Shown here: piece after piece, positions 21,166 to 31,007 of the stretch
How positions within the stretch are numbered: position 1 is the stretch's first letter
Layout of the letters: each line of letters starts with the position of its first letter
Position numbers and translations under genes: made by a program
Notes under the pieces: model-generated
Databases searched by the model: none
The model's input: only the letters and a program-made list of their open reading frames with translations
What the model was told of the DNA's origin: nothing
From: an uncultured Acidobacteriota bacterium
GTDB lineage: Bacteria > Acidobacteriota > Polarisedimenticolia > J045
NCBI GenBank assembly: GCA_963702425.1
Contig: CAVPCQ010000032.1
Coordinates: 160,001 to 224,000 of the forward strand
Direction of reading: 5' to 3'
Length of the DNA stretch: 64,000 nt

Positions 21166-23514
21166 TCAGCGCCTTCCCGGCGGCAGCAGCACGGACGCCG
21201 CCGCGTACAGCCCCACGCCGGCGAGCGCGACGTCATGGAACCCGGCGAGAATCGCCAGCGCGAGCGAGCAGACGCTGGCGAGCACGCTGGCGACGCCGTT
21301 GATCGCCCAGAACCAGGGCTTGCCGGCGTCGCCGAACCGGATCATCCCGACCGGGAACGCGAATCCCATGAGGTATCCGGGAAGCGCGAGCAGCAGCACG
21401 CTCGTCGCCACACGGGCCGGGAACCCCCAGCCCAGGCTGGCGCGGAACACGGGACCGAGGAGCAGCTCCGCGACGAGCACCGCCAGCGGCAGCAGGAACG
21501 CCCACCCGCGGCCGGCGAGGCGGGCCCGCGCGGCCGTCATGGCCCCGAGGCCGGCGCCCAGCAGCAGCGTTCCCAGGACCACCGCGGTCGCGTAGCTGGG
21601 ATGCCCGAGGTACAGGATGAAGCGCTGGATCCACGGCGCCTCGACGAACATGAACGCCAGTCCGATGGCCGCGAAGTAGGCGGTCCCGCGCCAGATGCCG
21701 GCGTGGCGCGGCAGCGCCCGCGCCAGCACGAGCGGCGCAGAGAAGGCGGCCAGCGCGAGCACGGCCATCCCCACGAGGAGCCGCCGGAGCGTGACCACCG
21801 ACTGGTCGTTGGCCGAGAGCGACGCCAGCGCGTCGCGGTTTACGTCTCCGAGCAGGCCGACGGTCTGGAAGAAGAAGGGCCGGTCGTCGGTCGGCGGCGT
21901 CAGATCGAACCCCTGCTCGCGCATCGACTCCCAGCCCGAGACGAGAACCTGCGCCAGCCGCGACTCGGCCGGCGTCTCGGCGCCCTGCGGCCAGTGCCGC
22001 ACCAGGCCGCGCGACGCGACGACCTCGTCGAGCTGCGACAGCCGTTCCGCGTCGAAGGGGCGACGGGAGACGAGCAGCGTGCCGACGCGCCCGGCCTGGA
22101 CCACCGCAAGGTGGCTCAGCGGATCGGCGACGCCTTCGCGCTCGAGCGCGAACCGGGCGAGCAGCGCGAGCCGCAGACCTTCGAGCTGACGCCGGCCCAT
22201 CATCCAGCGCGAGATCGAAACGACCCCGTCGTCCGAGAGCCGGTTCCAGTAGAGACGCAACGCCTCCTCGGTGTAGAGGTAGTTCTCGGAGAGCGCGAAG
22301 GCGCCGGCGGCCGTCGCCGCCCAGGTATCGATCAGCGAGATCTGGATCAGGTCGTACTTCTTGTCGGTGCGCGTCAGGAACGAGCGCCCCTCGGAGACGA
22401 CGGCGTTGACGTGCGGCAGGTGGTACACGTCCCCGGAGAACTCCCGGAATCGCCCCGAGACCAGGTCGACGATCTGCGGGTTGATCTCGATCGCATCGAT
22501 CTCCTGCGCGCCGGCCTCGCGGGCCGTCAGAATGTCACGACCGCCTCCCGCGCCGATGATGCAGACGGTTCGCGGCACCCGTAGCTGATAGCCCACGCTG
22601 GTCACATCGAAAAGCAGATGCTCCAGCGACTCCGGCCCGCCGCCGAGCCGCGTCACGGGCGTGCCCGCAGAGCCATCCTGTTCGATCCAGAGCTGCTCGA
22701 CCGCGTGGGGCGAAAAGCGCGTGCCGAGGCCCCAGTTGAAGGCCTCCTTCGGGTCCTTCTTCCAGAAGACCGTGTCGAAGACCGTGAGCCGGGCGGTGGC
22801 GGTCCACTTCTCGTAGAGCAGCGGACCGGTTTCCTCGTAGAGCTTGTTGTAGCGCAGCGTGTAGGGCGCCCCCCAGGCGATCGAGGCCGCGAGCGCCGCC
22901 GCGATGACCCCGGCCGCGCGACGTCGGGACGGGAACAGCACGGCCAGCGCCACGAGCGGCAGGAGCGCCGAGGCGGCGAGCAGGACCGGGGTCGCGACGA
23001 CGTTCATCAGCGGAATGACGAGCAGCGCCCCGCCCGTCGCCCCGAGCAGGTCGGCACCGTACATCCGCCCGATGGCGCGCCCGGTGACGCTCATCAGCAG
23101 CAGGCAAACGGCGGTCCCGAGAGCGAGCAGCGGCGGCAGCACGCTGACCAGCACCAGCAGCACGCGCCAACCGGCATCGGGCTGCGCTCCCAGCAGCGGC
23201 GACCGGTCCTCGCCCGCGGGCAGGAGCGCGCCCAGCTTGAAGATCGCGACGATCGAAAGCGGCACGAGAATGGCCGACACCTGGAGCGCGATGCGCAACG
23301 CGCGCGGGCGGGCGGGCCGCAGCGCGAACCAGATGCCGGGAGCGCCGAGCGCGAGCATGGCCAGCGACACCGAGAGAAAGGCGAAATGGTACCAGAGCAC
23401 GACGGAGAGGATCCGCGTGATGGCGATCTCGTAGATCAGGACGGTGCAGGAGACGAGCGCGATCGCGACCAGGAGAGACCGCTCGCCTCCGGAGACCTGT
23501 TCATCCGAGTGCAC
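21166..23514 (-). CDS. Polytopic membrane protein with spermidine-synthase-like class I SAM-binding domain
   Basis: YEIAITRILSVVLWYHFAF, YGADLLGA, CIIGAGGGRD, AIEINP, EGRSFL, ENYLYTEEA, TDDRPFFF. Confidence 0.85.
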   Translation of the reverse strand: MHSDEQVSGGERSLLVAIALVSCTVLIYEIAITRILSVVLWYHFAFLSVSLAMLALGAPGIWFALRPARPRALRIALQVSAILVPLSIVAIFKLGALLPAGEDRSPLLGAQPDAGWRVLLVLVSVLPPLLALGTAVCLLLMSVTGRAIGRMYGADLLGATGGALLVIPLMNVVATPVLLAASALLPLVALAVLFPSRRRAAGVIAAALAASIAWGAPYTLRYNKLYEETGPLLYEKWTATARLTVFDTVFWKKDPKEAFNWGLGTRFSPHAVEQLWIEQDGSAGTPVTRLGGGPESLEHLLFDVTSVGYQLRVPRTVCIIGAGGGRDILTAREAGAQEIDAIEINPQIVDLVSGRFREFSGDVYHLPHVNAVVSEGRSFLTRTDKKYDLIQISLIDTWAATAAGAFALSENYLYTEEALRLYWNRLSDDGVVSISRWMMGRRQLEGLRLALLARFALEREGVADPLSHLAVVQAGRVGTLLVSRRPFDAERLSQLDEVVASRGLVRHWPQGAETPAESRLAQVLVSGWESMREQGFDLTPPTDDRPFFFQTVGLLGDVNRDALASLSANDQSVVTLRRLLVGMAVLALAAFSAPLVLARALPRHAGIWRGTAYFAAIGLAFMFVEAPWIQRFILYLGHPSYATAVVLGTLLLGAGLGAMTAARARLAGRGWAFLLPLAVLVAELLLGPVFRASLGWGFPARVATSVLLLALPGYLMGFAFPVGMIRFGDAGKPWFWAINGVASVLASVCSLALAILAGFHDVALAGVGLYAAASVLLPPGRR

Positions 23515-23575
23515 CGACGCATGGTGAAGGAACGATCTGCCGATGACAAGCGGCGGTTCACGACGGCGCGGCGGA

Positions 23576-23602
23576 CGGGCCGGGACGGAGCCCGGCCCCT
23601 AC
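23576..23602 (-). repeat. REP palindrome copy with a compensatory base-pair change
   Basis: GTAGGGGCCGGGCTCCGTCCCGGCCCG versus consensus GTAGGGGCCGGCCTCCGTGCCGGCCCG. Confidence 0.8.
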
Positions 23603-23757
23603 GGGTCTTCGGGACGATCGACCGGCGGCTTCGGCTCCCGCCCGGGGAGCTCACAGGACTGCGACATTCAGGTGGGGATCCCCATCCAGGGGAGGATCCA
23701 GCGCTGGAGCGCGAACCACGCGCCCAGGATCGCAAGAAAAAGCAGGATGTTGGTCAT
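23599..23757 (-). CDS. Putative small membrane selenoprotein (52 aa, in-frame UGA at codon 30, U-x4-C); 29 aa if UGA is a stop
   Basis: Hand translation MTNILLFLAILGAWFALQRWILPWMGIPT-UGA-MSQSCELPGREPKPPVDRPEDP-TAG. TGATG overlap with the upstream gene. UGA at 23668-23670. Confidence 0.6.
23634..23650 (-). promoter_or_regulatory. Candidate bacterial SECIS hairpin
   Basis: GCTCCC-CGGGC-GGGAGC stem-loop starting 17 nt after the UGA, with a small G-rich apical loop. Confidence 0.5.
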
Positions 23758-24050
23758 CAGACCAGTTGCTCCACGTTGACGACGCTCGCTCTCAGGCACG
23801 GCTGGATCTCGCATTTCCCGGCGAAATCCTGCAGGTCTTTCAGGATCGCCGCAACCGCCGCTTCCGACACCCCGGGGACGACGATCACGATCGCCCCGAA
23901 GGAGACCGTTCGGGGCAGGCTCGCGCGCTCGAGGAACTTGTGGCCCACCGCGCCCGGGATCTTCAGGTAGCCTTCCGCCCCGTGGCGGTCGAGCGCGCCG
24001 ACCACCTCGTGCTCGAGGTCCTCGCTGCAGTAGATGACGAGCTGCTTCAT
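23757..24050 (-). CDS. P-II/GlnB-like transporter-associated small protein with C-x4-C
   Basis: MKQLVIYCSEDLEHEVVGALDRHGAEGYLKIPGAVGH...CEIQPCLRASVVNVEQLV. ATGA overlap with the RND gene. Fold call is from sequence pattern only. Confidence 0.7.
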   Translation of the reverse strand: MKQLVIYCSEDLEHEVVGALDRHGAEGYLKIPGAVGHKFLERASLPRTVSFGAIVIVVPGVSEAAVAAILKDLQDFAGKCEIQPCLRASVVNVEQLV

Positions 24051-27000
24051 TCCGCGTCTCCCGATGCCGGCGTCTCGTGCTTGGCGCGCTCGACCATGTA
24101 GTAGAGCACGGGCACGACGACCAGCGTCAAGACGGTCGAGGCCAGCGAGCCGAACATCAGGGCGATTGCCAGCCCCTGGAAGATCGGGTCGAACAGGATC
24201 ACCACCGCGCCCATGACCACCGCGCCCGCGGTCAGCACGATCGGCCGCGTCCGCACCGCCCCGGCCTCGACCAGCGCCTCGCCCAGCGTCCGCCCCTCGG
24301 CCAGCGCCAGCTCGACGAAATCGATCAAGAGGATCCCGTTGCGGACCATGATCCCGGCCAGCGCGATGAAGCCGATCATCGAAGTCGCGGTGAAGAAGGC
24401 TCCCAGCGCCCAGTGCCCCGGGACCACGCCGATCAGGCCGAGCGGAATCGCGACCATCATCACCAGTGGCACCGTGAACGATCGGAACCAGCCGATGATC
24501 AGCAGGTAGATCAGCACCAGCACGGCGGCGAAGGCGAAGCCGAGGTCGCGGAAGACCTCGTAGGTGATGTGCCACTCGCCGTCCCACTTCATCGCCGGCT
24601 TCTCTTCGGACCCCGGCTCGTCGCGGTAGTACTGCTCGACCACGCCGCCCCCGGGGACTTGCAGCTTGTCGATCTCCTTGGCCATCTTGAGGATCGCGTA
24701 GACTGGGCTCTCCTCGCGGCCGGAGACATCGGCGGTGACGTAGACGACGGGCTTCAGGTTCTTGCGGAACAGGCTGGCGTCCTCCGTCGTGCGGCGGACC
24801 GTCACCAGCTCCGACATCGGGACCATCGCCCCGCTCATCGCCGCGAGCTTGACCGCCGCGAGGGCCGCGACCGACGAACGCTCGGCCCGCGGCAGCTCGA
24901 CGCGGATCGGCACCGGCTCGGCCTCCGCGTCGCGGTGCAGCAGCCCCGCGTCCTCGCCGGCGATCAGCGCCCGCAGCGAGCGGGCAACCATCGCCGCCGG
25001 AACGCCATGGAGGGCAGCCTTCTCGCGGTCGACCTCGAAGACTTCCTTCGGCTGCGGCGCCTCGACCCACCAGTCGACGTCGACCACGGAGGGGGTCGAT
25101 TCGAAGATCCCCTTGATCCGCTCGGCCGTCGCGCGGCGGGCCTTCTCGTCCGGGCCGTAGACCTCCGCGACCAGCGTCGCCAGGACCGGCGGCCCCGGCG
25201 GGACCTCGGCGATCTTCACCGCCGCGCCGTTCTTCCTGGCGATTTCCTCCACCGCCGGGCGGATCCGCTTGGCGATGTCGTGGCTCTGGTCCTTGCGGTC
25301 GTGCTTGGGGGCCAGATTCACTTGAAGATCGGCGACATTGGCGCCGCGCCGCAGGTCGTAGTGCCGAACCAGGCCGTTGAAGTTGACCGGCGCCGACGTC
25401 CCGGCGTACAGCTCGACATCGGTCACCTCCGGCACGCTGCCCAGGTAGATCCCGATCTCGCGCGCCACGCGCGCCGTGTCCTCGAGCGTCGTCCCCTCCG
25501 GCATGTCGACCACGATCTGCAGCTCGCTCTTGTTGTCGAACGGCAGCATCTTCACCGCGACCATCTTGAGCGGGAACATCGCCACGGCGCCCGCCAACAG
25601 CAGCGCGACGCCCCCCAGGAAGCCCCAGCGGAGCGCGGGCTTCTCCATCATCGGCACGAGGATCCGGCGATAGAGGCCGTAGATCCTGGTCCGCTTGACG
25701 TCGTACTCCTCGTCGTGGGCGTGTCCGCCGCGCAGCAGCCGGTAGGCCAGCCAGGGGGCGATCGTCAGCGCGACGACCAGCGAGAAGAGCATCGCCAGCG
25801 ACGCGCCGATCGGCATCGGCGCCATGTAGGGACCCATCAGGCCGCGCACGAAGGCCATCGGCAGCAGGGCCGCGATGACGGTGAAGGTCGCCAGGATCGT
25901 CGGGTTGCCGACCTCGGAGACCGCGGTCACCGCGGCCTGCAGCGCCGGCAGCTTCTTCATCGAGAAGTGCCGGGCGACGTTCTCGACGACGATGATCGAG
26001 TCGTCGACGACGAGCCCGGTGACGAAGATCAGCGCGAAGAGGGTCACGCGGTTCAGGGTGTAGCCGAAGACGTAGTAGATGAAGAGCGTCAGGGCGAAGG
26101 TCACCGGCAGCGAGATGAAGACCACCAGCGAGCCGCGCCACCCGAGCGACAGGGCGATGAAGATCGTCACGATCACGATCGTGAGGAGCAGGTGCAGCTC
26201 CAGCTCGTCGACCTTTTCGCGCGCGGTCTCGCCGTAGTTCCGCGTCACCTCGACTTCGACGCCGCCCGGGACCAGCGTCCCCTTCAGTGCGTTGACCTTG
26301 TCGAGCGCGGCGGCGGTCACGCGGTAGGCGTCCGCCCCCTTGCGCTTGGCGAGCGACAGGGTGACCGCGTCGTAGAGGCCGGCCGGCGCCTCGATGCCGC
26401 GCGTCCGCGCCGCCGGCCCGGGCGAGAAGGCGACGTAGTCGGCCGGCTCCTCCGGGCCGTCGAGCACGGTGGCGACGTCCCGCAGGTAGATCGGCTTTCC
26501 CTCGTGTGCACCGACGACCAGCCCCTCGACGTCCTCGCGGCTCCTCAGGAACCCGCCGGTCTCGACCTTGACCTCGCGGTTCCCCTGCTCGATGCTGCCG
26601 GCCGGGGCGCTCGCGTTCTGGAACTGCAGCGCCTGGACGATCGTCCCCGGGTCGGCGTGCATCGCCGCCATCCGGCCGCCGTCGAGCTGCACCCGCACCG
26701 CGCGCCGCTGGCCGCCGATGATCTTGATCTCCGAGACGTCGTCGAGCCGCGACAGTTCCCTGCCCATCTCGGCCGCCAGCCGCCGCAGCGCGAAGCCGTC
26801 CTGGTCCTTGCGCGCGCTCCAGAGCGTCAGCCCCAGCACCGGCACGTCGTCGATCGCCCGCGTCCTGATCAGCGGCGGAGTCGCGCCGGGCGGCATCCGG
26901 TCCAGCCCCGAGACGAGCTTGTCGTAGATCTTGACCAGGCTGCGCTCCTGGTCCTCGCCCACCTTGAAGCGGACCGTGACCATCGCCACGCTGGGCATCG

Positions 27001-27271
27001 ACCCGGAGTAGACGTACTCGACCCCGGGAATCTCCGCCATCCGCTTTTCCAGCGGGATCGTGACGCGGTTCTCGACGGCCTGGGGCGAGGCGCCCGGCAG
27101 GCCGACGAAGATGTCGACCATCGGGACGACGATCTGCGGCTCCTCCTCGCGCGGCGTGAGCAGCACCGCGAACCCGCCGAGCAGGAGCGACGCCACGATC
27201 AAGAGCGGCGTCAGCTTGGAGTCGATGAAGAAGTGGGCGACCTTGCCGGCCGGCCCGAGGCTGGGGGTCAT
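24047..27271 (-). CDS. RND efflux transporter permease (AcrB/AcrD/AcrF family)
   Basis: 1074 aa. PREEEPQIVVPMVD, GLVVDDSIIVVEN, GEWHITYEVFRDLG, GIMVRNGILLIDF, RTRPIVLT. Confidence 0.96.
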   Translation of the reverse strand: MTPSLGPAGKVAHFFIDSKLTPLLIVASLLLGGFAVLLTPREEEPQIVVPMVDIFVGLPGASPQAVENRVTIPLEKRMAEIPGVEYVYSGSMPSVAMVTVRFKVGEDQERSLVKIYDKLVSGLDRMPPGATPPLIRTRAIDDVPVLGLTLWSARKDQDGFALRRLAAEMGRELSRLDDVSEIKIIGGQRRAVRVQLDGGRMAAMHADPGTIVQALQFQNASAPAGSIEQGNREVKVETGGFLRSREDVEGLVVGAHEGKPIYLRDVATVLDGPEEPADYVAFSPGPAARTRGIEAPAGLYDAVTLSLAKRKGADAYRVTAAALDKVNALKGTLVPGGVEVEVTRNYGETAREKVDELELHLLLTIVIVTIFIALSLGWRGSLVVFISLPVTFALTLFIYYVFGYTLNRVTLFALIFVTGLVVDDSIIVVENVARHFSMKKLPALQAAVTAVSEVGNPTILATFTVIAALLPMAFVRGLMGPYMAPMPIGASLAMLFSLVVALTIAPWLAYRLLRGGHAHDEEYDVKRTRIYGLYRRILVPMMEKPALRWGFLGGVALLLAGAVAMFPLKMVAVKMLPFDNKSELQIVVDMPEGTTLEDTARVAREIGIYLGSVPEVTDVELYAGTSAPVNFNGLVRHYDLRRGANVADLQVNLAPKHDRKDQSHDIAKRIRPAVEEIARKNGAAVKIAEVPPGPPVLATLVAEVYGPDEKARRATAERIKGIFESTPSVVDVDWWVEAPQPKEVFEVDREKAALHGVPAAMVARSLRALIAGEDAGLLHRDAEAEPVPIRVELPRAERSSVAALAAVKLAAMSGAMVPMSELVTVRRTTEDASLFRKNLKPVVYVTADVSGREESPVYAILKMAKEIDKLQVPGGGVVEQYYRDEPGSEEKPAMKWDGEWHITYEVFRDLGFAFAAVLVLIYLLIIGWFRSFTVPLVMMVAIPLGLIGVVPGHWALGAFFTATSMIGFIALAGIMVRNGILLIDFVELALAEGRTLGEALVEAGAVRTRPIVLTAGAVVMGAVVILFDPIFQGLAIALMFGSLASTVLTLVVVPVLYYMVERAKHETPASGDAE

Positions 27272-28431
27272 CGTGTCACCTCAGCGGGCCTTGCGCCGGA
27301 ACTGGAGGGGCCGGGGTCGGACGCGCCGGAGATCGGCGCGCCGTCGGCGATCCCCGCGGGCGGCGCGCTGACGTAGCGCTCGCCGGCGGAGAGGCCCGAG
27401 AGGACCTCGACCCGGTCGCCGAGCAGCGCCCCCGGCCGCACCCAGCGCAGCCGCGCCTTGCCCGCCTCGTCCACGATCCAGACGCCCTGGAGCTGTCCGC
27501 GCTCGACCAGCGCCGCCGCCGGCACGGTCAGCGTTTCCCGCGTCCCCTTCGGGAACCGGATGCGCACGTACATCCCCGGCTTGATCGCGCCGCCGGGGTT
27601 GTCGAGCAGCAGCTTCACCGCGAAGGTCCGGCTCATCGAATCGCCGGCCGGGACGATCCGCTCGACCGTCGCCGGGACCGGCGCGCCCAGCACGTCGATC
27701 GCGACCGTCGCCGGCGCGCCTTCCGCGAGGCCGACGATCTGCGCCTCCGGCACCTGCGCCACGACCCGGACCTTCGACAGGTCGTCCACCGTGAAGAGCG
27801 GCATCCCGGGCGACGCCATGTCGCCGGCTTCGATCCGCTTCGCGGTGACGACGCCGGAGACCGGGGTCGAGACGATGGCGTAGCCGAGCATCACCTGGGC
27901 CGCCGCGAGATTCGCCTGCGCCTGCTGCACGCCGGCCCTGGCCATGTTGTAGCCGGCGGTCGCATCCTCGAGGTTCTTGGCGGTGGCGGAGCCGCGTTCG
28001 ACCAGCGCGGTCATGCGCTTGTACGTCGCCTCGGCGTTCGTCTGCTGCGCCTCGGCCATCGCGACGCCGGCCTTCGCCTGCTCGACCGCCGCCGCCAGGT
28101 CGCGGCTCTCGAGCCGCGCCAGCGCCTGCCCGGCGCGGACGGCGTCCCCCTCGCGGACCATCACGCGCTCGACGCGCCCCATGATCTTCGTGCCGGGGGA
28201 GACGCGCTCGATCGGCTCGACCGCGCCGGACACCTCGACGACATCAGCCGAGGAGGCCAGCTCGGCCACGGCGACCGGCGCCGACACGGCGGCCGGCTCG
28301 GCGGGAGGGGCGACCTCGTGCCGGCCGCCGCAGCCGGCGGAGAGCAGGACCGCGGCCAGCGCGGCGACAACGAGGACGACGGAAGCGGGTCGGGAACTCG
28401 GGCGGCGGATCATCGGCGGTTCTCCCGTCAC
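27268..28431 (-). CDS. RND periplasmic adaptor (membrane fusion protein), lipoprotein
   Basis: Lipobox LLSAGC; GRVERVMVREGDAVRAGQ; PVSGVVT; SRTFAVK; PGMYVR; VEVLSGLSAGE. Confidence 0.93.
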   Translation of the reverse strand: MTGEPPMIRRPSSRPASVVLVVAALAAVLLSAGCGGRHEVAPPAEPAAVSAPVAVAELASSADVVEVSGAVEPIERVSPGTKIMGRVERVMVREGDAVRAGQALARLESRDLAAAVEQAKAGVAMAEAQQTNAEATYKRMTALVERGSATAKNLEDATAGYNMARAGVQQAQANLAAAQVMLGYAIVSTPVSGVVTAKRIEAGDMASPGMPLFTVDDLSKVRVVAQVPEAQIVGLAEGAPATVAIDVLGAPVPATVERIVPAGDSMSRTFAVKLLLDNPGGAIKPGMYVRIRFPKGTRETLTVPAAALVERGQLQGVWIVDEAGKARLRWVRPGALLGDRVEVLSGLSAGERYVSAPPAGIADGAPISGASDPGPSSSGARPAEVTR

Positions 28432-29759
28432 AGGCGGCCGATGGCCAGCTTCAGGCGGGCCTCGGCGAGCAGGACATCGCGGCGTGCGGAGACTTCGCGG
28501 GTGCGGGAGGAGGTCAGCGCGGTCTCGGCGGCCAGCAGCTCGACCAGCGTCGTCAGCCCCTCCTTGTAGCGGTCCTCGACGATCACGAGGCTGGCCTCCG
28601 CGGACTCGATCGCCTTGGCCGCGTGTCCGAGGCTCTCGCGCGAGGCCTTCAGATCGTAGAACGCCTGCCGCACCTCGAGACCGGCCATCTGGCGCAGGTG
28701 GTTCGCGTATTCGGTCGCCTGGCGCTGCTGCTCCTCCGCGCGGCGCACGCGGGAGCGCGTGCCGAAGCCATCGAACGCGTTCCAGGTGACGGTGCCCATC
28801 ACGGTCCAGTTGGTGCCGTCGGCGCCGATGAAGTCCTCCGCGTTCGCCTCGTAGGCCCCACCGACGCCGATTTCGGGCAGGTAGCCGGCGCGCGCCACCT
28901 TGATCATCTTCTCTGCGGCACCGGTCCGCGCGACTGCGGCCTTGAGATCGGGGCGCGCGTCGATCGCCTCCTTCGTCAGCGCGTCGAGATCGCTCTCGGT
29001 GAAGACCGGAACGTCGACGCTCGCCGGCAGCGCGTGGGGCGTGTCGAGCGGCAGCCCCATGGCGAGGTTCAGCCCGGCGCGCGCCACCGCCGCCTGGCTG
29101 TCGGCGCGGGTCAGCATGTCCCTCAGCTCCAGCTCGCGGACCTCCGCCTGGAGCAGGTCGGAGCGGACGACCATCCCGGTCTCGACCATGTCGCGCACGA
29201 GCTTGACGTGGGCTGACGCCGTCTTCAGCCCCTCGCCGGCGACGCCGCGGGTGCTCTCGGCCAGCACGGCGCCGCTGTAGGCCTCGATCACCCGCTGCGT
29301 GACCTGCTGGCGCGCCGTGTCGCGGTCGGCCGCCGCGGCCGCCGCCCCCAGCTCGGCCGCCGCGACCCCGCCGGCGATCTTCCCGCCGCTCCAGATCGGC
29401 TGCATCACGGCCAGCTTGGTGTTCCAGTTGTTGGTGGCGGGCGGCTCGTTGAGGAAGTTCGGATCAAAGTTGGCCGGGCCGAAGCGCTCCTGCGACAGGA
29501 GGTCGCTGAAGACCAGGACCGGGTTGGTGCTGCGCGACGCGAACTCCGAGAGCTGAACCCGGGGGAGGCGCCAGGAGCGGGCCTCGTCGACCTGCGCCTC
29601 GGCCGCACCAACCCCGGCGTCGGCCGCGCGCAGCAGCGGGTTCTGCTCGAGCGCGGTCGCGACGGCCTCGTCGAGCGTCAGCGGGGCGGCCTCGGCCGCA
29701 GCGGCCGGCCGGGCCAAGCCCAGCGCCAGGATTACCAGGCCAAGTACGATGCGCTTCAT
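28428..29759 (-). CDS. TolC family outer-membrane efflux protein
   Basis: Signal peptide MKRIVLGLVILALG; PLTLDEAVATALEQNP; RYKEGLTTLVELLAAE; LKLAIGRL. Confidence 0.93.
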   Translation of the reverse strand: MKRIVLGLVILALGLARPAAAAEAAPLTLDEAVATALEQNPLLRAADAGVGAAEAQVDEARSWRLPRVQLSEFASRSTNPVLVFSDLLSQERFGPANFDPNFLNEPPATNNWNTKLAVMQPIWSGGKIAGGVAAAELGAAAAAADRDTARQQVTQRVIEAYSGAVLAESTRGVAGEGLKTASAHVKLVRDMVETGMVVRSDLLQAEVRELELRDMLTRADSQAAVARAGLNLAMGLPLDTPHALPASVDVPVFTESDLDALTKEAIDARPDLKAAVARTGAAEKMIKVARAGYLPEIGVGGAYEANAEDFIGADGTNWTVMGTVTWNAFDGFGTRSRVRRAEEQQRQATEYANHLRQMAGLEVRQAFYDLKASRESLGHAAKAIESAEASLVIVEDRYKEGLTTLVELLAAETALTSSRTREVSARRDVLLAEARLKLAIGRL

Positions 29760-29836
29760 GGCGATGTCACCCTCGCGGGGCCCGGCGGGACCGCCGGGCC
29801 GGCGGATAGCGCAGAGATGCCGCGGCGGGGGCCGGG

Positions 29837-30914
29837 TTACAGCCAGCGGCGGGTCCGGAACCAGAGGTACATCCCGAGCGCCGCGGCCGCCATCAGGCCG
29901 AGCGCTCCGTACCAGCCCGAGACCTGCTCCTTCCCGGGGAACAGGACGTTCATCCCGCCGACGCTGGCGATGAAGGTCATCGGCATGAAGATCGTGCTGA
30001 TCAGGGTCAGGGCCTTCATCACCTCGTTCAGCTTGAGGCTGACGGCGTTCAGGTAGAGGTCGTGCACGGTGCCGACGACGTCCCGCAGGTTCTCCAGCAT
30101 GTCGATCAGCTGGATCGTGTGATCGTAGATGTCGCGGAAGTAGATTCGGGATTCGGGGCGCAGAAGCGCCGCTCTCGCCCCGCTCGAGCCAGGAGATGAC
30201 CTCGCGCATCGGCCAGACGGTCCGGCGCATCTCGATCAGCGAGCGCTTCATCGCCAGCACGCTCTCGATCGTCTCACGACTTGGATCGGAGAGGACCCGG
30301 TCCTCGAGGTCCTCGAGCTTGACGCCCAACTGCTCCGTGATGACGAAGTAGTTGTCGACGATCGTATCGAGCAGCCGGTACATGAGGTAATCGACGCTTC
30401 TCTGGCGCGCCTGGGCCTGACCCTGCGCGATGCGCGACGCGATCCCGCCGAACAACGTCGGCTGCTGCTCTTCGAAGGTGATCAGCCAGTCCTTCCCGAG
30501 CACGAAGCTGACCTGCTCGGCCACCACCTCGCCCGACTCCGCGTCGAGTGACAGGTTGCGGACCACGACGAAGAGATAGTCGCCGTAGTCGTCGCACTTG
30601 GGGCGCTGGCCGACGTTGACGATATCTTCGACGACCAGCGGGTGCAGGCCGAACATCTCCGCCACCTTCTGGATCTGCGCGACATCGTGCACCCCGTCGA
30701 TGCAGATCCAGCTCGGCCGCCCCGAGTCGCGGAACCGGGGAAGATCGGACGGCTTGACGTCCGCGTGGAGCGATGCCGTCGCGGTGTCGTAGTCGAGGAC
30801 GCTGATCCGGATCGGGCGCGCGACCTCGGCCCCGGTGTAGACGGGGGTGCCGGGGGGGAGTCCGGCCTTCTGCGCGCGGTGGCCCCGGGCAGCTTTGCGA
30901 CGGCGTCGGCTCAC
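29837..30914 (-). CDS. corA: CorA magnesium/cobalt transporter (frameshift near 30150)
   Basis: KAGLPPGTPVYTG, FGLHPLVVEDIVN, QRPKCDDY; second frame LNEVMKALTLISTIFMPMTFIASVGGMN (GMN signature). Confidence 0.9.
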
Positions 30915-31007
30915 GGCCGGATTATCGCCGTGTCCAGTTTGACGGTCCACGGGGGCTCCCGGAGAATGGGGCGGTCCCAGTCCACACGCTCACCGGAGGA
31001 GAGACCG

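Follow-up and report, generated by a model that had tools for sequence, protein, structure and literature searches.

A candidate 52-residue membrane selenoprotein encoded at the end of an RND efflux operon in an uncultured Acidobacteriota bacterium

The window analyzed here is a 64,000-nucleotide (nt) stretch of the genome of an uncultured Acidobacteriota bacterium (GenBank assembly GCA_963702425.1, contig CAVPCQ010000032.1, positions 160,001 to 224,000). On its minus strand, a small gene with an in-frame UGA codon closes an efflux operon of the resistance-nodulation-division (RND) type. The best explanation for this gene, to which we give a probability of about 85%, is that it encodes a 52-residue selenoprotein that operates by the scheme described below. 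A 52-residue selenoprotein had been proposed from the window alone (here called the original prediction), and the comparative tests support it. True decoding of the UGA as selenocysteine (Sec) is very probable, judging from the comparison of homologs across genomes.

In the proposed scheme, the UGA at 23670-23668 would be decoded as Sec by the genome's own SelA, SelB, SelC, and SelD, with a small hairpin within the coding sequence, 17 nt past the codon, as the directing signal. The product would be a single-pass membrane protein with a tiny N terminus outside and the C terminus inside, in which the helix would be followed within a few residues by Sec30 and Cys35, at the cytoplasmic face, and then by a disordered, charged tail. 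Sec30 and Cys35 would form a redox couple (selenol/thiol to selenenylsulfide), reduced by thioredoxin, whose substrate at the membrane surface would be an oxidant, a reactive species of sulfur or selenium, or a soft metal(loid). Because the protein would be the last, translationally coupled product of an operon for an outer-membrane protein, a membrane fusion protein, an RND permease, and a PII-like protein, it probably serves the pump module. The features of the small gene and its 3' end are as follows.

23599..23757, minus strand: candidate small selenoprotein gene, 52 codons including the Sec UGA, plus a TAG stop (translation; homolog alignment)
23668..23670, minus strand: in-frame UGA, read here as Sec, residue 30 (aligned codon in 125 loci)
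23653..23655, minus strand: Cys35 (TGT), the partner in a U-x4-C motif, five codons past the UGA (conservation of Cys at +5)
23634..23650, minus strand: SECIS-like hairpin GCUCCC-CGGGC-GGGAGC, 6 bp, encoding part of ELPGRE (17 nt between UGA and hairpin)
23686..23754, minus strand: single transmembrane helix, residues 2-24, predicted N-out/C-in (AlphaFold2 predicted local distance difference test [pLDDT] of ~87; charge bias)
23577..23598, minus strand: 8-bp GC hairpin directly 3' of the TAG, with no T run (sequence)

Conservation of the UGA codon

On the minus strand, the frame reads MTNILLFLAILGAWFALQRWILPWMGIPT, TGA (23670-23668), MSQSCELPGREPKPPVDRPEDP, and TAG (23601-23599), and the A of its ATG (23757-23755) is the last base of the upstream TGA stop (23759-23757). 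The features from which the original prediction was built, namely, the overlapping start, the UGA, the Cys at +5, the TAG, and the 6-bp hairpin 17 nt on, are all present on this strand as described.

The first search, made in six frames with the read-through protein as the query, found the gene in 18 of 61 related genomes, the window's own included (one unpublished genome, G034, which lacks the gene and bears on no conclusion, is counted in this tally, in those for selA and for the 401-genome sample below, and presumably in that for the 119-genome sample). Each of the 18 copies has one in-frame TGA at the same aligned position, and similarity extends past it to residue 39-52; a match without a stop (G018:C18; E 0.005) stands outside the 18 analyzed. 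These 18 loci, from 18 genomes, align without gaps from codon -20 to codon +12, and W14, L22, P23, G26, T29, U30, C35, and R40 are invariant. Past the UGA, the summed column entropies are 8.7, 9.5, and 14.5 at codon positions 1, 2, and 3 (14 nonredundant loci), and a peak at the third position reads as the pattern of translated sequence. Both TGT and TGC are used for Cys35 among the homologs. Conservation beyond the UGA, which the original prediction had named as support, is thus present and of a coding type, and the synonymous variation at Cys35, the gapless alignment from the TGA to +12, and the variable third positions all argue against an ordinary stop.

Wider sampling gave the same result. 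Of 119 genomes of the class, 31 have the gene, each as a single copy with an in-frame TGA, and within the phylum (Acidobacteriota), matches were found in 113 of 401 genomes. Eight of the phylum matches run through the aligned stretch without a stop: a Cys form and seven in which TGA comes right after "GVPT," where the profile alignment ended early because the sequence diverges afterwards (U-AVPNPRG...). Searches of species-representative genomes gave 441 confirmed loci, of which 80 were kept. Three loci (L041, L042, and L100) that lack the motif were dropped as chance matches. The 125 classified loci (116 distinct core sequences) comprise 45 in-phylum and 80 cross-collection loci, and the aligned codon is TGA in 107, TGC in 12, and TGT in 6. 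TAA and TAG occur in none of the 125, which span several phyla, and this argues against termination at this position. Cys is found at +5 in 100 of the 107 UGA forms and in all 18 Cys forms.

A profile built from 18 sequences and searched against 1.84 billion representative proteins matched 1,246 at E ≤ 1e-3 and 102 at E ≤ 1e-10; the best 150 of the 1,246 are 39 to 208 residues long, mostly 45 to 90. All 34 relatives that were inspected have Cys at +5, and 33 of them have Cys at the U position (...LPxFG(I/V)PT-C-MSGAC...). The Cys-aligned homologs expected under the original prediction are thus numerous, and their frames run on past the codon, which also speaks against an ordinary stop. In the remaining relative (P0021), Trp takes the place of Sec and precedes a SECIS-type "DLPVRE"; this protein is perhaps a UGA form that a metagenome pipeline translated under a code in which TGA is Trp. 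In protein clusters at 90% identity, a word-index search found close UGA-form relatives only as 29-residue stubs, named "hypothetical protein" where their sources name them, so the truncation at 29 residues that had been foreseen for gene callers is what public protein sets hold.

The nearest relatives are in Acidobacteriota, and the family is also found in Planctomycetota, Desulfobacterota ("Deltaproteobacteria"), Myxococcota, Spirochaetota, Verrucomicrobiota, KSB1, and Armatimonadota. The family thus spans many bacterial phyla, and, judged by the aligned codon, most of its sampled members use Sec and the rest Cys (C-x4-C).

The hairpin and the Sec machinery

The bacterial selenocysteine insertion sequence (SECIS) is a stem-loop shortly 3' of the UGA, with a G early in a small apical loop. 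Of 97 distinct UGA forms, 89 have a positioned hairpin, defined as a stem of at least 5 bp with the loop center 16 to 31 nt past the codon, compared with 8 of 18 Cys forms (Fisher P = 1.4e-5); with stems of at least 6 bp, the counts are 79/97 and 5/18. Among the UGA-form hairpins, the distance from the UGA to the stem is 15.8 ± 2.6 nt, 87 of the 89 have loops of 3 to 5 nt (GGA, GUC, CGUGC, GGUC, and CGGGC), and 88 carry a G as the first or second loop base, all of which fits the SECIS consensus. The hairpin thus tracks the TGA forms rather than the end of the gene; no T run follows it, and the terminator scan was empty, which again argues against an ordinary stop. The second, 8-bp GC hairpin (23577..23598), which that scan did not flag, may possibly mark the end of the operon transcript.

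Covariation between the two arms was measured by swapping the 3' arms among 14 homologs. Native pairs average -12.4 kcal/mol and chimeras -9.8, and 3 of 20,000 permutations reach the native value, in a test that the relatedness of the homologs somewhat inflates. The Cys forms lack the ELPGRE-type conservation past Cys35; the peptide is proposed to be conserved solely in UGA forms because the SECIS hairpin sits inside the coding sequence. Two Cys forms, one from an "uncultured bacterium" (L121) and one from Leptospira (L171), retain hairpins of 10 and 8 bp, respectively, at the SECIS position, which may be leftovers of a recent change from Sec to Cys.

The genome, which is 91% complete, holds the machinery for Sec insertion that the original prediction had called for. 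It has a tRNA-Sec with anticodon UCA (70.8 bits; ARAGORN concurs), selB (313 bits), selA (507 bits), and selD (340 bits), all above their family cut-offs. Its selD (G000:C16:54490-55428, L018) itself contains an in-frame TGA (NCAG-U-ASKLG), and a strong hairpin with a GGUC-type loop lies directly past that codon. A selA match was found in all 23 UGA-form genomes tested (18/18 from the first search and 5/5 from other phyla). In the closest relative, G004, selA (G004:C4:1016061-1017406) is split into three adjacent pieces in different frames in a 5-contig assembly; since G004 keeps the UGA form, indel errors seem a likelier cause than loss of the gene's function.

Topology, gene neighborhoods, and function

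AlphaFold2 predicts a coil tail after the helix at residues 2-24, and family members have a charged, variable C-terminal tail. Averaged over 115 members of the family, the six residues N-terminal of the helix contain 0.27 K+R and 0.83 D+E, against 1.76 K+R and 0.03 D+E in the 13 residues from the helix to the U/C position. Given this charge bias, the positive-inside rule predicts an external N terminus and a U-x4-C motif on the cytoplasmic side of the membrane.

The operon that ends with the small gene consists of five genes, in the order outer-membrane protein, adaptor, RND permease, PII-like gene, and small gene, and all junctions overlap by 1 to 4 nt. The first four are as follows.

28428..29759, minus strand: outer-membrane efflux protein, 443 residues, first gene of the operon (OEP domains, E 1e-62)
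27268..28431, minus strand: RND periplasmic adaptor (membrane fusion protein) (HlyD_D23, E 3.5e-34; TIGR01730, 233.9 bits, above cut-off)
24047..27271, minus strand: RND efflux permease, 1,074 residues (Pfam ACR_tran, E 4e-163; NCBIfam RND permease subfamilies all below cut-offs)
23757..24050, minus strand: PII-like gene, 97 residues, with a stop that overlaps the small-gene ATG (weak family matches)

The small gene is therefore the last gene of an RND efflux operon, as originally predicted, but the upstream stop that overlaps its start belongs to the PII-like gene and not to the pump. The PII-like gene is given only that name because its match to NF045581 (PG0541 family; 18.8 bits, E 0.0012) is below the 45-bit cut-off and its match to Pfam P-II is weak (14.6 bits, E 0.044). 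Two loci (L033 and L039) have two tandem PII-like genes between the RND permease and the small gene, where the window has one.

Neighbors were counted by domain-only tblastn with single queries in flanks of 1.5 to 3 kb, and the following counts are lower bounds.

RND permease near the small gene: 21/45 in-phylum loci (upstream, same strand); 11/80 cross-collection loci
YgaP-like transmembrane protein (invariant Cys in NWCP), adjacent on the same strand: 10/45; 16/80 (12 of the 16 are Cys forms)
FmdB zinc ribbon: 10/45 (directly 3' of the small gene, e.g., L085, L088, and L073); 7/80
PII-like gene directly upstream: 11/45; 4/80
Thioredoxin, adjacent: 3/45; 8/80
DUF302: 4/45; 4/80
Extracytoplasmic function (ECF) sigma factor: 0/45; 7/80

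Higher counts from clustering of stop-to-stop open reading frames (ORFs) (thioredoxin, 18/80; metallo-beta-lactamase [MBL]-rhodanese, 17/80) were discarded as overstated in favor of these, because the small gene's frame and the YgaP-like domain had merged with the thioredoxin and MBL-rhodanese clusters. The link to RND operons is thus real but not universal.

Some loci tie the small gene to thioredoxin more closely. L149 and P0074 encode in-frame fusions of the helix, a CxxxxC motif, a linker, and a canonical thioredoxin, which in P0074 reaches the TIGR01068 cut-off. In L082, a UGA form, the order is cysteine-desulfurase-like gene, YgaP-like gene, small gene, TrxA gene, and FmdB gene, and the FmdB family is listed among predicted selenoproteins (UxxU) in a 2026 review (PMC13188914). 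In L170, a Cys form, the order is ECF sigma factor, zf-HC2 anti-sigma factor, small gene, YgaP-like gene, and thioredoxin. A role as an anti-sigma factor, considered because the small gene follows an ECF sigma factor gene in some Planctomycetota, was rejected because of the separate zf-HC2 gene that lies between the two in L170 and because the tail is too short and too variable. Complex prediction for the L170 protein and the adjacent YgaP-like protein, with both alignments, scored 0.00 against a mark of 0.32 and is neither for nor against an interaction. The window's operon has no YgaP-like gene, and the genome's two copies are on other contigs.

The recurrence of RND, PII-like, YgaP-like, and thioredoxin genes, including the fusions, suggests a thioredoxin-linked selenol/thiol centre. 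The odds that the small protein has a thioredoxin-linked redox role seem to us about even, and a physical association with the RND/PII-like module is a tentative proposal that we would not favor.

An alternative within the selenoprotein reading, unlikely in our estimate, is that Sec30 and Cys35 are not a thioredoxin-cycled redox couple but a pair of ligands for a soft metal or metalloid (Cu(I), Hg, Ag, As, Te, or Se), which would pass the ion to the RND pump or sense it. Heavy-metal RND pumps mostly take their substrates from the periplasm, which does not suit a motif that, by its charge bias, faces the cytoplasm. The position at the end of an RND operon and the RND genes at other loci are consistent with ligation, as are the ArsR-type regulators and DUF302 genes that recur nearby and the resemblance of the adaptor to the CzcB/NccB and CusB types as well. 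Although the CusA/CzcA subfamily model does hit the permease (E 6e-89, under the model's cut-off), multidrug-type RND subfamily models give the best scores, and the thioredoxin fusions and adjacency favor thiol-disulfide chemistry. Several catalogued transporter-linked selenoproteins are proposed metal binders (PMC13188914 and a preprint by Haft and Gwadz). That preprint names an SO_0444-family Cu/Zn efflux transporter and a MerT-like protein among transport-linked selenoproteins; both resemble the small protein in having Sec/Cys motifs in membrane proteins of soft-metal efflux or transport, but they have multiple helices with the motif inside the permease, whereas here a separate single helix carries the motif outside the membrane, and no homology was detected. 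The metal(loid)-ligand and redox readings are not mutually exclusive.

The latter is also true of the redox reading and a second alternative, which we regard as improbable, namely, that the protein is an accessory subunit whose helix docks on the membrane domain of the RND permease and tunes its activity, with the Sec/Cys pair as a redox switch. The model for such a subunit is AcrZ, a small single-helix accessory protein of the AcrAB-TolC RND pump that is not encoded in the pump operon. Like AcrZ, the small protein is about 50 residues long, with a transmembrane helix at its N terminus and a predicted tail in the cytoplasm, and its gene is tied to an RND pump; this gene is translationally coupled to the pump operon in the window and lies about 50 nt past the RND gene in L061, L066, L067, and L069. 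However, sequence similarity to AcrZ is undetectable, no Pfam or NCBIfam family, small pump subunits included, is similar to the protein, the small gene (unlike that for AcrZ) sits in the pump operon itself, and 93 of the 125 loci have no RND gene by these queries in flanks of only 1.5 to 3 kb. To our knowledge, AcrZ carries neither Sec nor a Cys redox motif.

Several observations weigh against the selenoprotein reading or its functional part. Within the window alone, the pattern of a UGA with a hairpin is not beyond chance and is weak evidence. In folding energy, the 76 nt past the UGA do not surpass shuffled sequences (z = +0.65). Among the 1,050 TGA triplets of the window (~70% G+C), 14.3% have a similarly placed hairpin of at least 6 bp with a loop G, 66.4% precede an open frame of at least 20 codons, and 9.2% (97/1,050) have both; 5 combine hairpin, open frame, and Cys at +5. 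The significance of the pattern thus comes from the other genomes. Among those, 8 of the 97 distinct UGA forms have no positioned hairpin and, as noted, 8 of the 18 Cys forms have one. RNAalifold, run on an 18-sequence alignment, gave three consensus pairs with no compensatory changes, a weak consensus attributable to shifts of 1 to 3 nt in the hairpin register between subfamilies. Folding past the UGA is better than in uniform-codon recodings only and is not better than in synonymous recodings with the genome's codon usage (Fisher P = 0.95; 12 loci), which is expected because the Leu-Pro-Gly-Arg-Glu codons are self-complementary.

The motif and its context vary as well. Cys at +5 is replaced by G, S, D, H, or P in 7 of the 107 UGA forms (L066 to L070 and two others). 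A variant subfamily (L091 to L099, in G472, G406, G273, G325, G381, G390, G343, G260, and G206) keeps the helix, "LPRLGVPT," the TGA, and a GC hairpin ~17 nt past it but continues U-AVPNPRG... or U-GVRGPAGGG... and lacks Cys at +5; either these are Sec forms that work by another chemistry, or the TGA of this lineage has turned into a real stop. Not every member of the family, therefore, has a U/C redox pair. The presence of selA in every UGA-form genome tested agrees with the idea that UGA forms are confined to genomes with Sec machinery, but it barely discriminates, because selA is nearly universal in the class (58 of the 61 relatives) and is found in 4 of 5 Cys-form genomes. In 54 of the 125 loci, the single-sequence queries found none of the neighbors listed above, and functional inference is indirect because the neighbor sets vary by lineage. 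The statistical tests overstate independence, since sequences within a lineage are related, and Sec decoding is a prediction from sequence comparison. A look-up of RNA runs for 23300-24300 of the window gave no entry.

The weakest alternative, and a very improbable one in view of the codon counts, the Cys forms, and the distribution of the hairpin, is that the TGA is an ordinary stop, as gene callers and databases treat it and as would suit the commonest stop in GC-rich genomes, a hairpin unexceptional within the window, the forms without Cys at +5, and a second GC hairpin past the TAG, so that the product would be a 29-residue membrane micropeptide and the first hairpin a terminator, an attenuator, or an mRNA-stability element at the end of the operon.

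Known families and the flanks of the operon

The window protein has no Pfam or NCBIfam (release 20) match at E ≤ 1, and the small part of 12 Cys forms scores above no Pfam or NCBIfam family cut-off (E ≤ 10). The best match of a PDB profile search, to vasopressin receptor helices (E 0.47), is due to chance, and the nearest ESM Atlas cluster is a "hypothetical protein" with a score of 0.85, which is under the trust mark. A review of May 2026 (PMC13188914, Table 1) lists 119 prokaryotic selenoprotein families and subfamilies, all with domain identifiers; no U-x4-C motif and no single-helix peptide is among the 119 entries, which were compared through Pfam and NCBIfam models and Sec motifs, with the CDD and PANTHER identifiers of the table outside the comparison. 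Such a family goes unmentioned in passages from the deep-Sep paper (PMC12013277), the preprint by Haft and Gwadz, and the paper on BSepDB (PMC13326102). Full-text literature on DUF2892 with selenocysteine, on small membrane selenoproteins, and on Acidobacteriota SECIS elements yielded nothing relevant. The family thus appears to be uncatalogued and new; its Sec insertion would be canonical, its size and membrane anchor unusual.

The small protein shares with known bacterial selenoproteins that have Cys homologs and a SECIS inside the ORF (e.g., SelD and the thioredoxin-like and peroxiredoxin-like families; PMC13188914, Table 1) a UGA aligned with Cys, a nearby partner Cys, a hairpin soon past the UGA with an early loop G, genomes with selA, selB, selC, and selD, and truncation by gene callers. 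It differs from them in having 52 residues, no thioredoxin fold or recognizable domain, a membrane anchor, and a U-x4-C motif instead of the usual UxxC or CxxU. The YgaP-like transmembrane proteins (PF11127, DUF2892) are likewise small membrane proteins with an invariant Cys (NWCP) and lie near thioredoxin, rhodanese, and DUF302 genes, but they are a separate family with two helices, and neither family matches the other.

If the selenoprotein reading is true, a whole selenoprotein family has been missed, with matches in 113 of the 401 phylum genomes and 441 confirmed loci. Its tiny size, its lack of a known domain, and its truncation to 29 residues by every gene caller probably explain why it was overlooked, and listing it would fix thousands of annotations and widen the selenoproteomes of soil and sediment bacteria. 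Being very small and accessible to synthesis, the protein would also serve as a model for comparing Sec with Cys chemistry at the surface of a membrane, and its ties to RND pumps, YgaP-like proteins, and thioredoxin would give a handle on the roles of those accessory genes. With hairpin and encoded peptide conserved only where the codon is UGA, the family would provide a natural experiment on SECIS evolution. A broader proposal, speculative and rather doubtful at present, is that this widespread uncatalogued family, among the smallest of selenoproteins, is a minimal membrane-anchored selenol catalyst, recycled by thioredoxin, that detoxifies lipid-phase oxidants or reactive sulfur/selenium species or redox-gates the attached efflux pump; the U-AVPNPRG subfamily would then be a further Sec form with different chemistry.

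Two genes flank the efflux operon. A long ORF (28428..30950) fuses a CorA-like Mg2+ transporter domain (residues 80-259) with the outer-membrane efflux protein, but the latter has its own start at 29759, which leaves a separate CorA-like gene (29760-30950, minus strand) just upstream of the operon. Downstream of the small gene, 21166-23514 (minus strand) encodes a 782-residue membrane protein with a weak spermidine-synthase-like domain (E 1.8e-6), which, among the 18 loci, adjoins the small gene in the window's own locus only.

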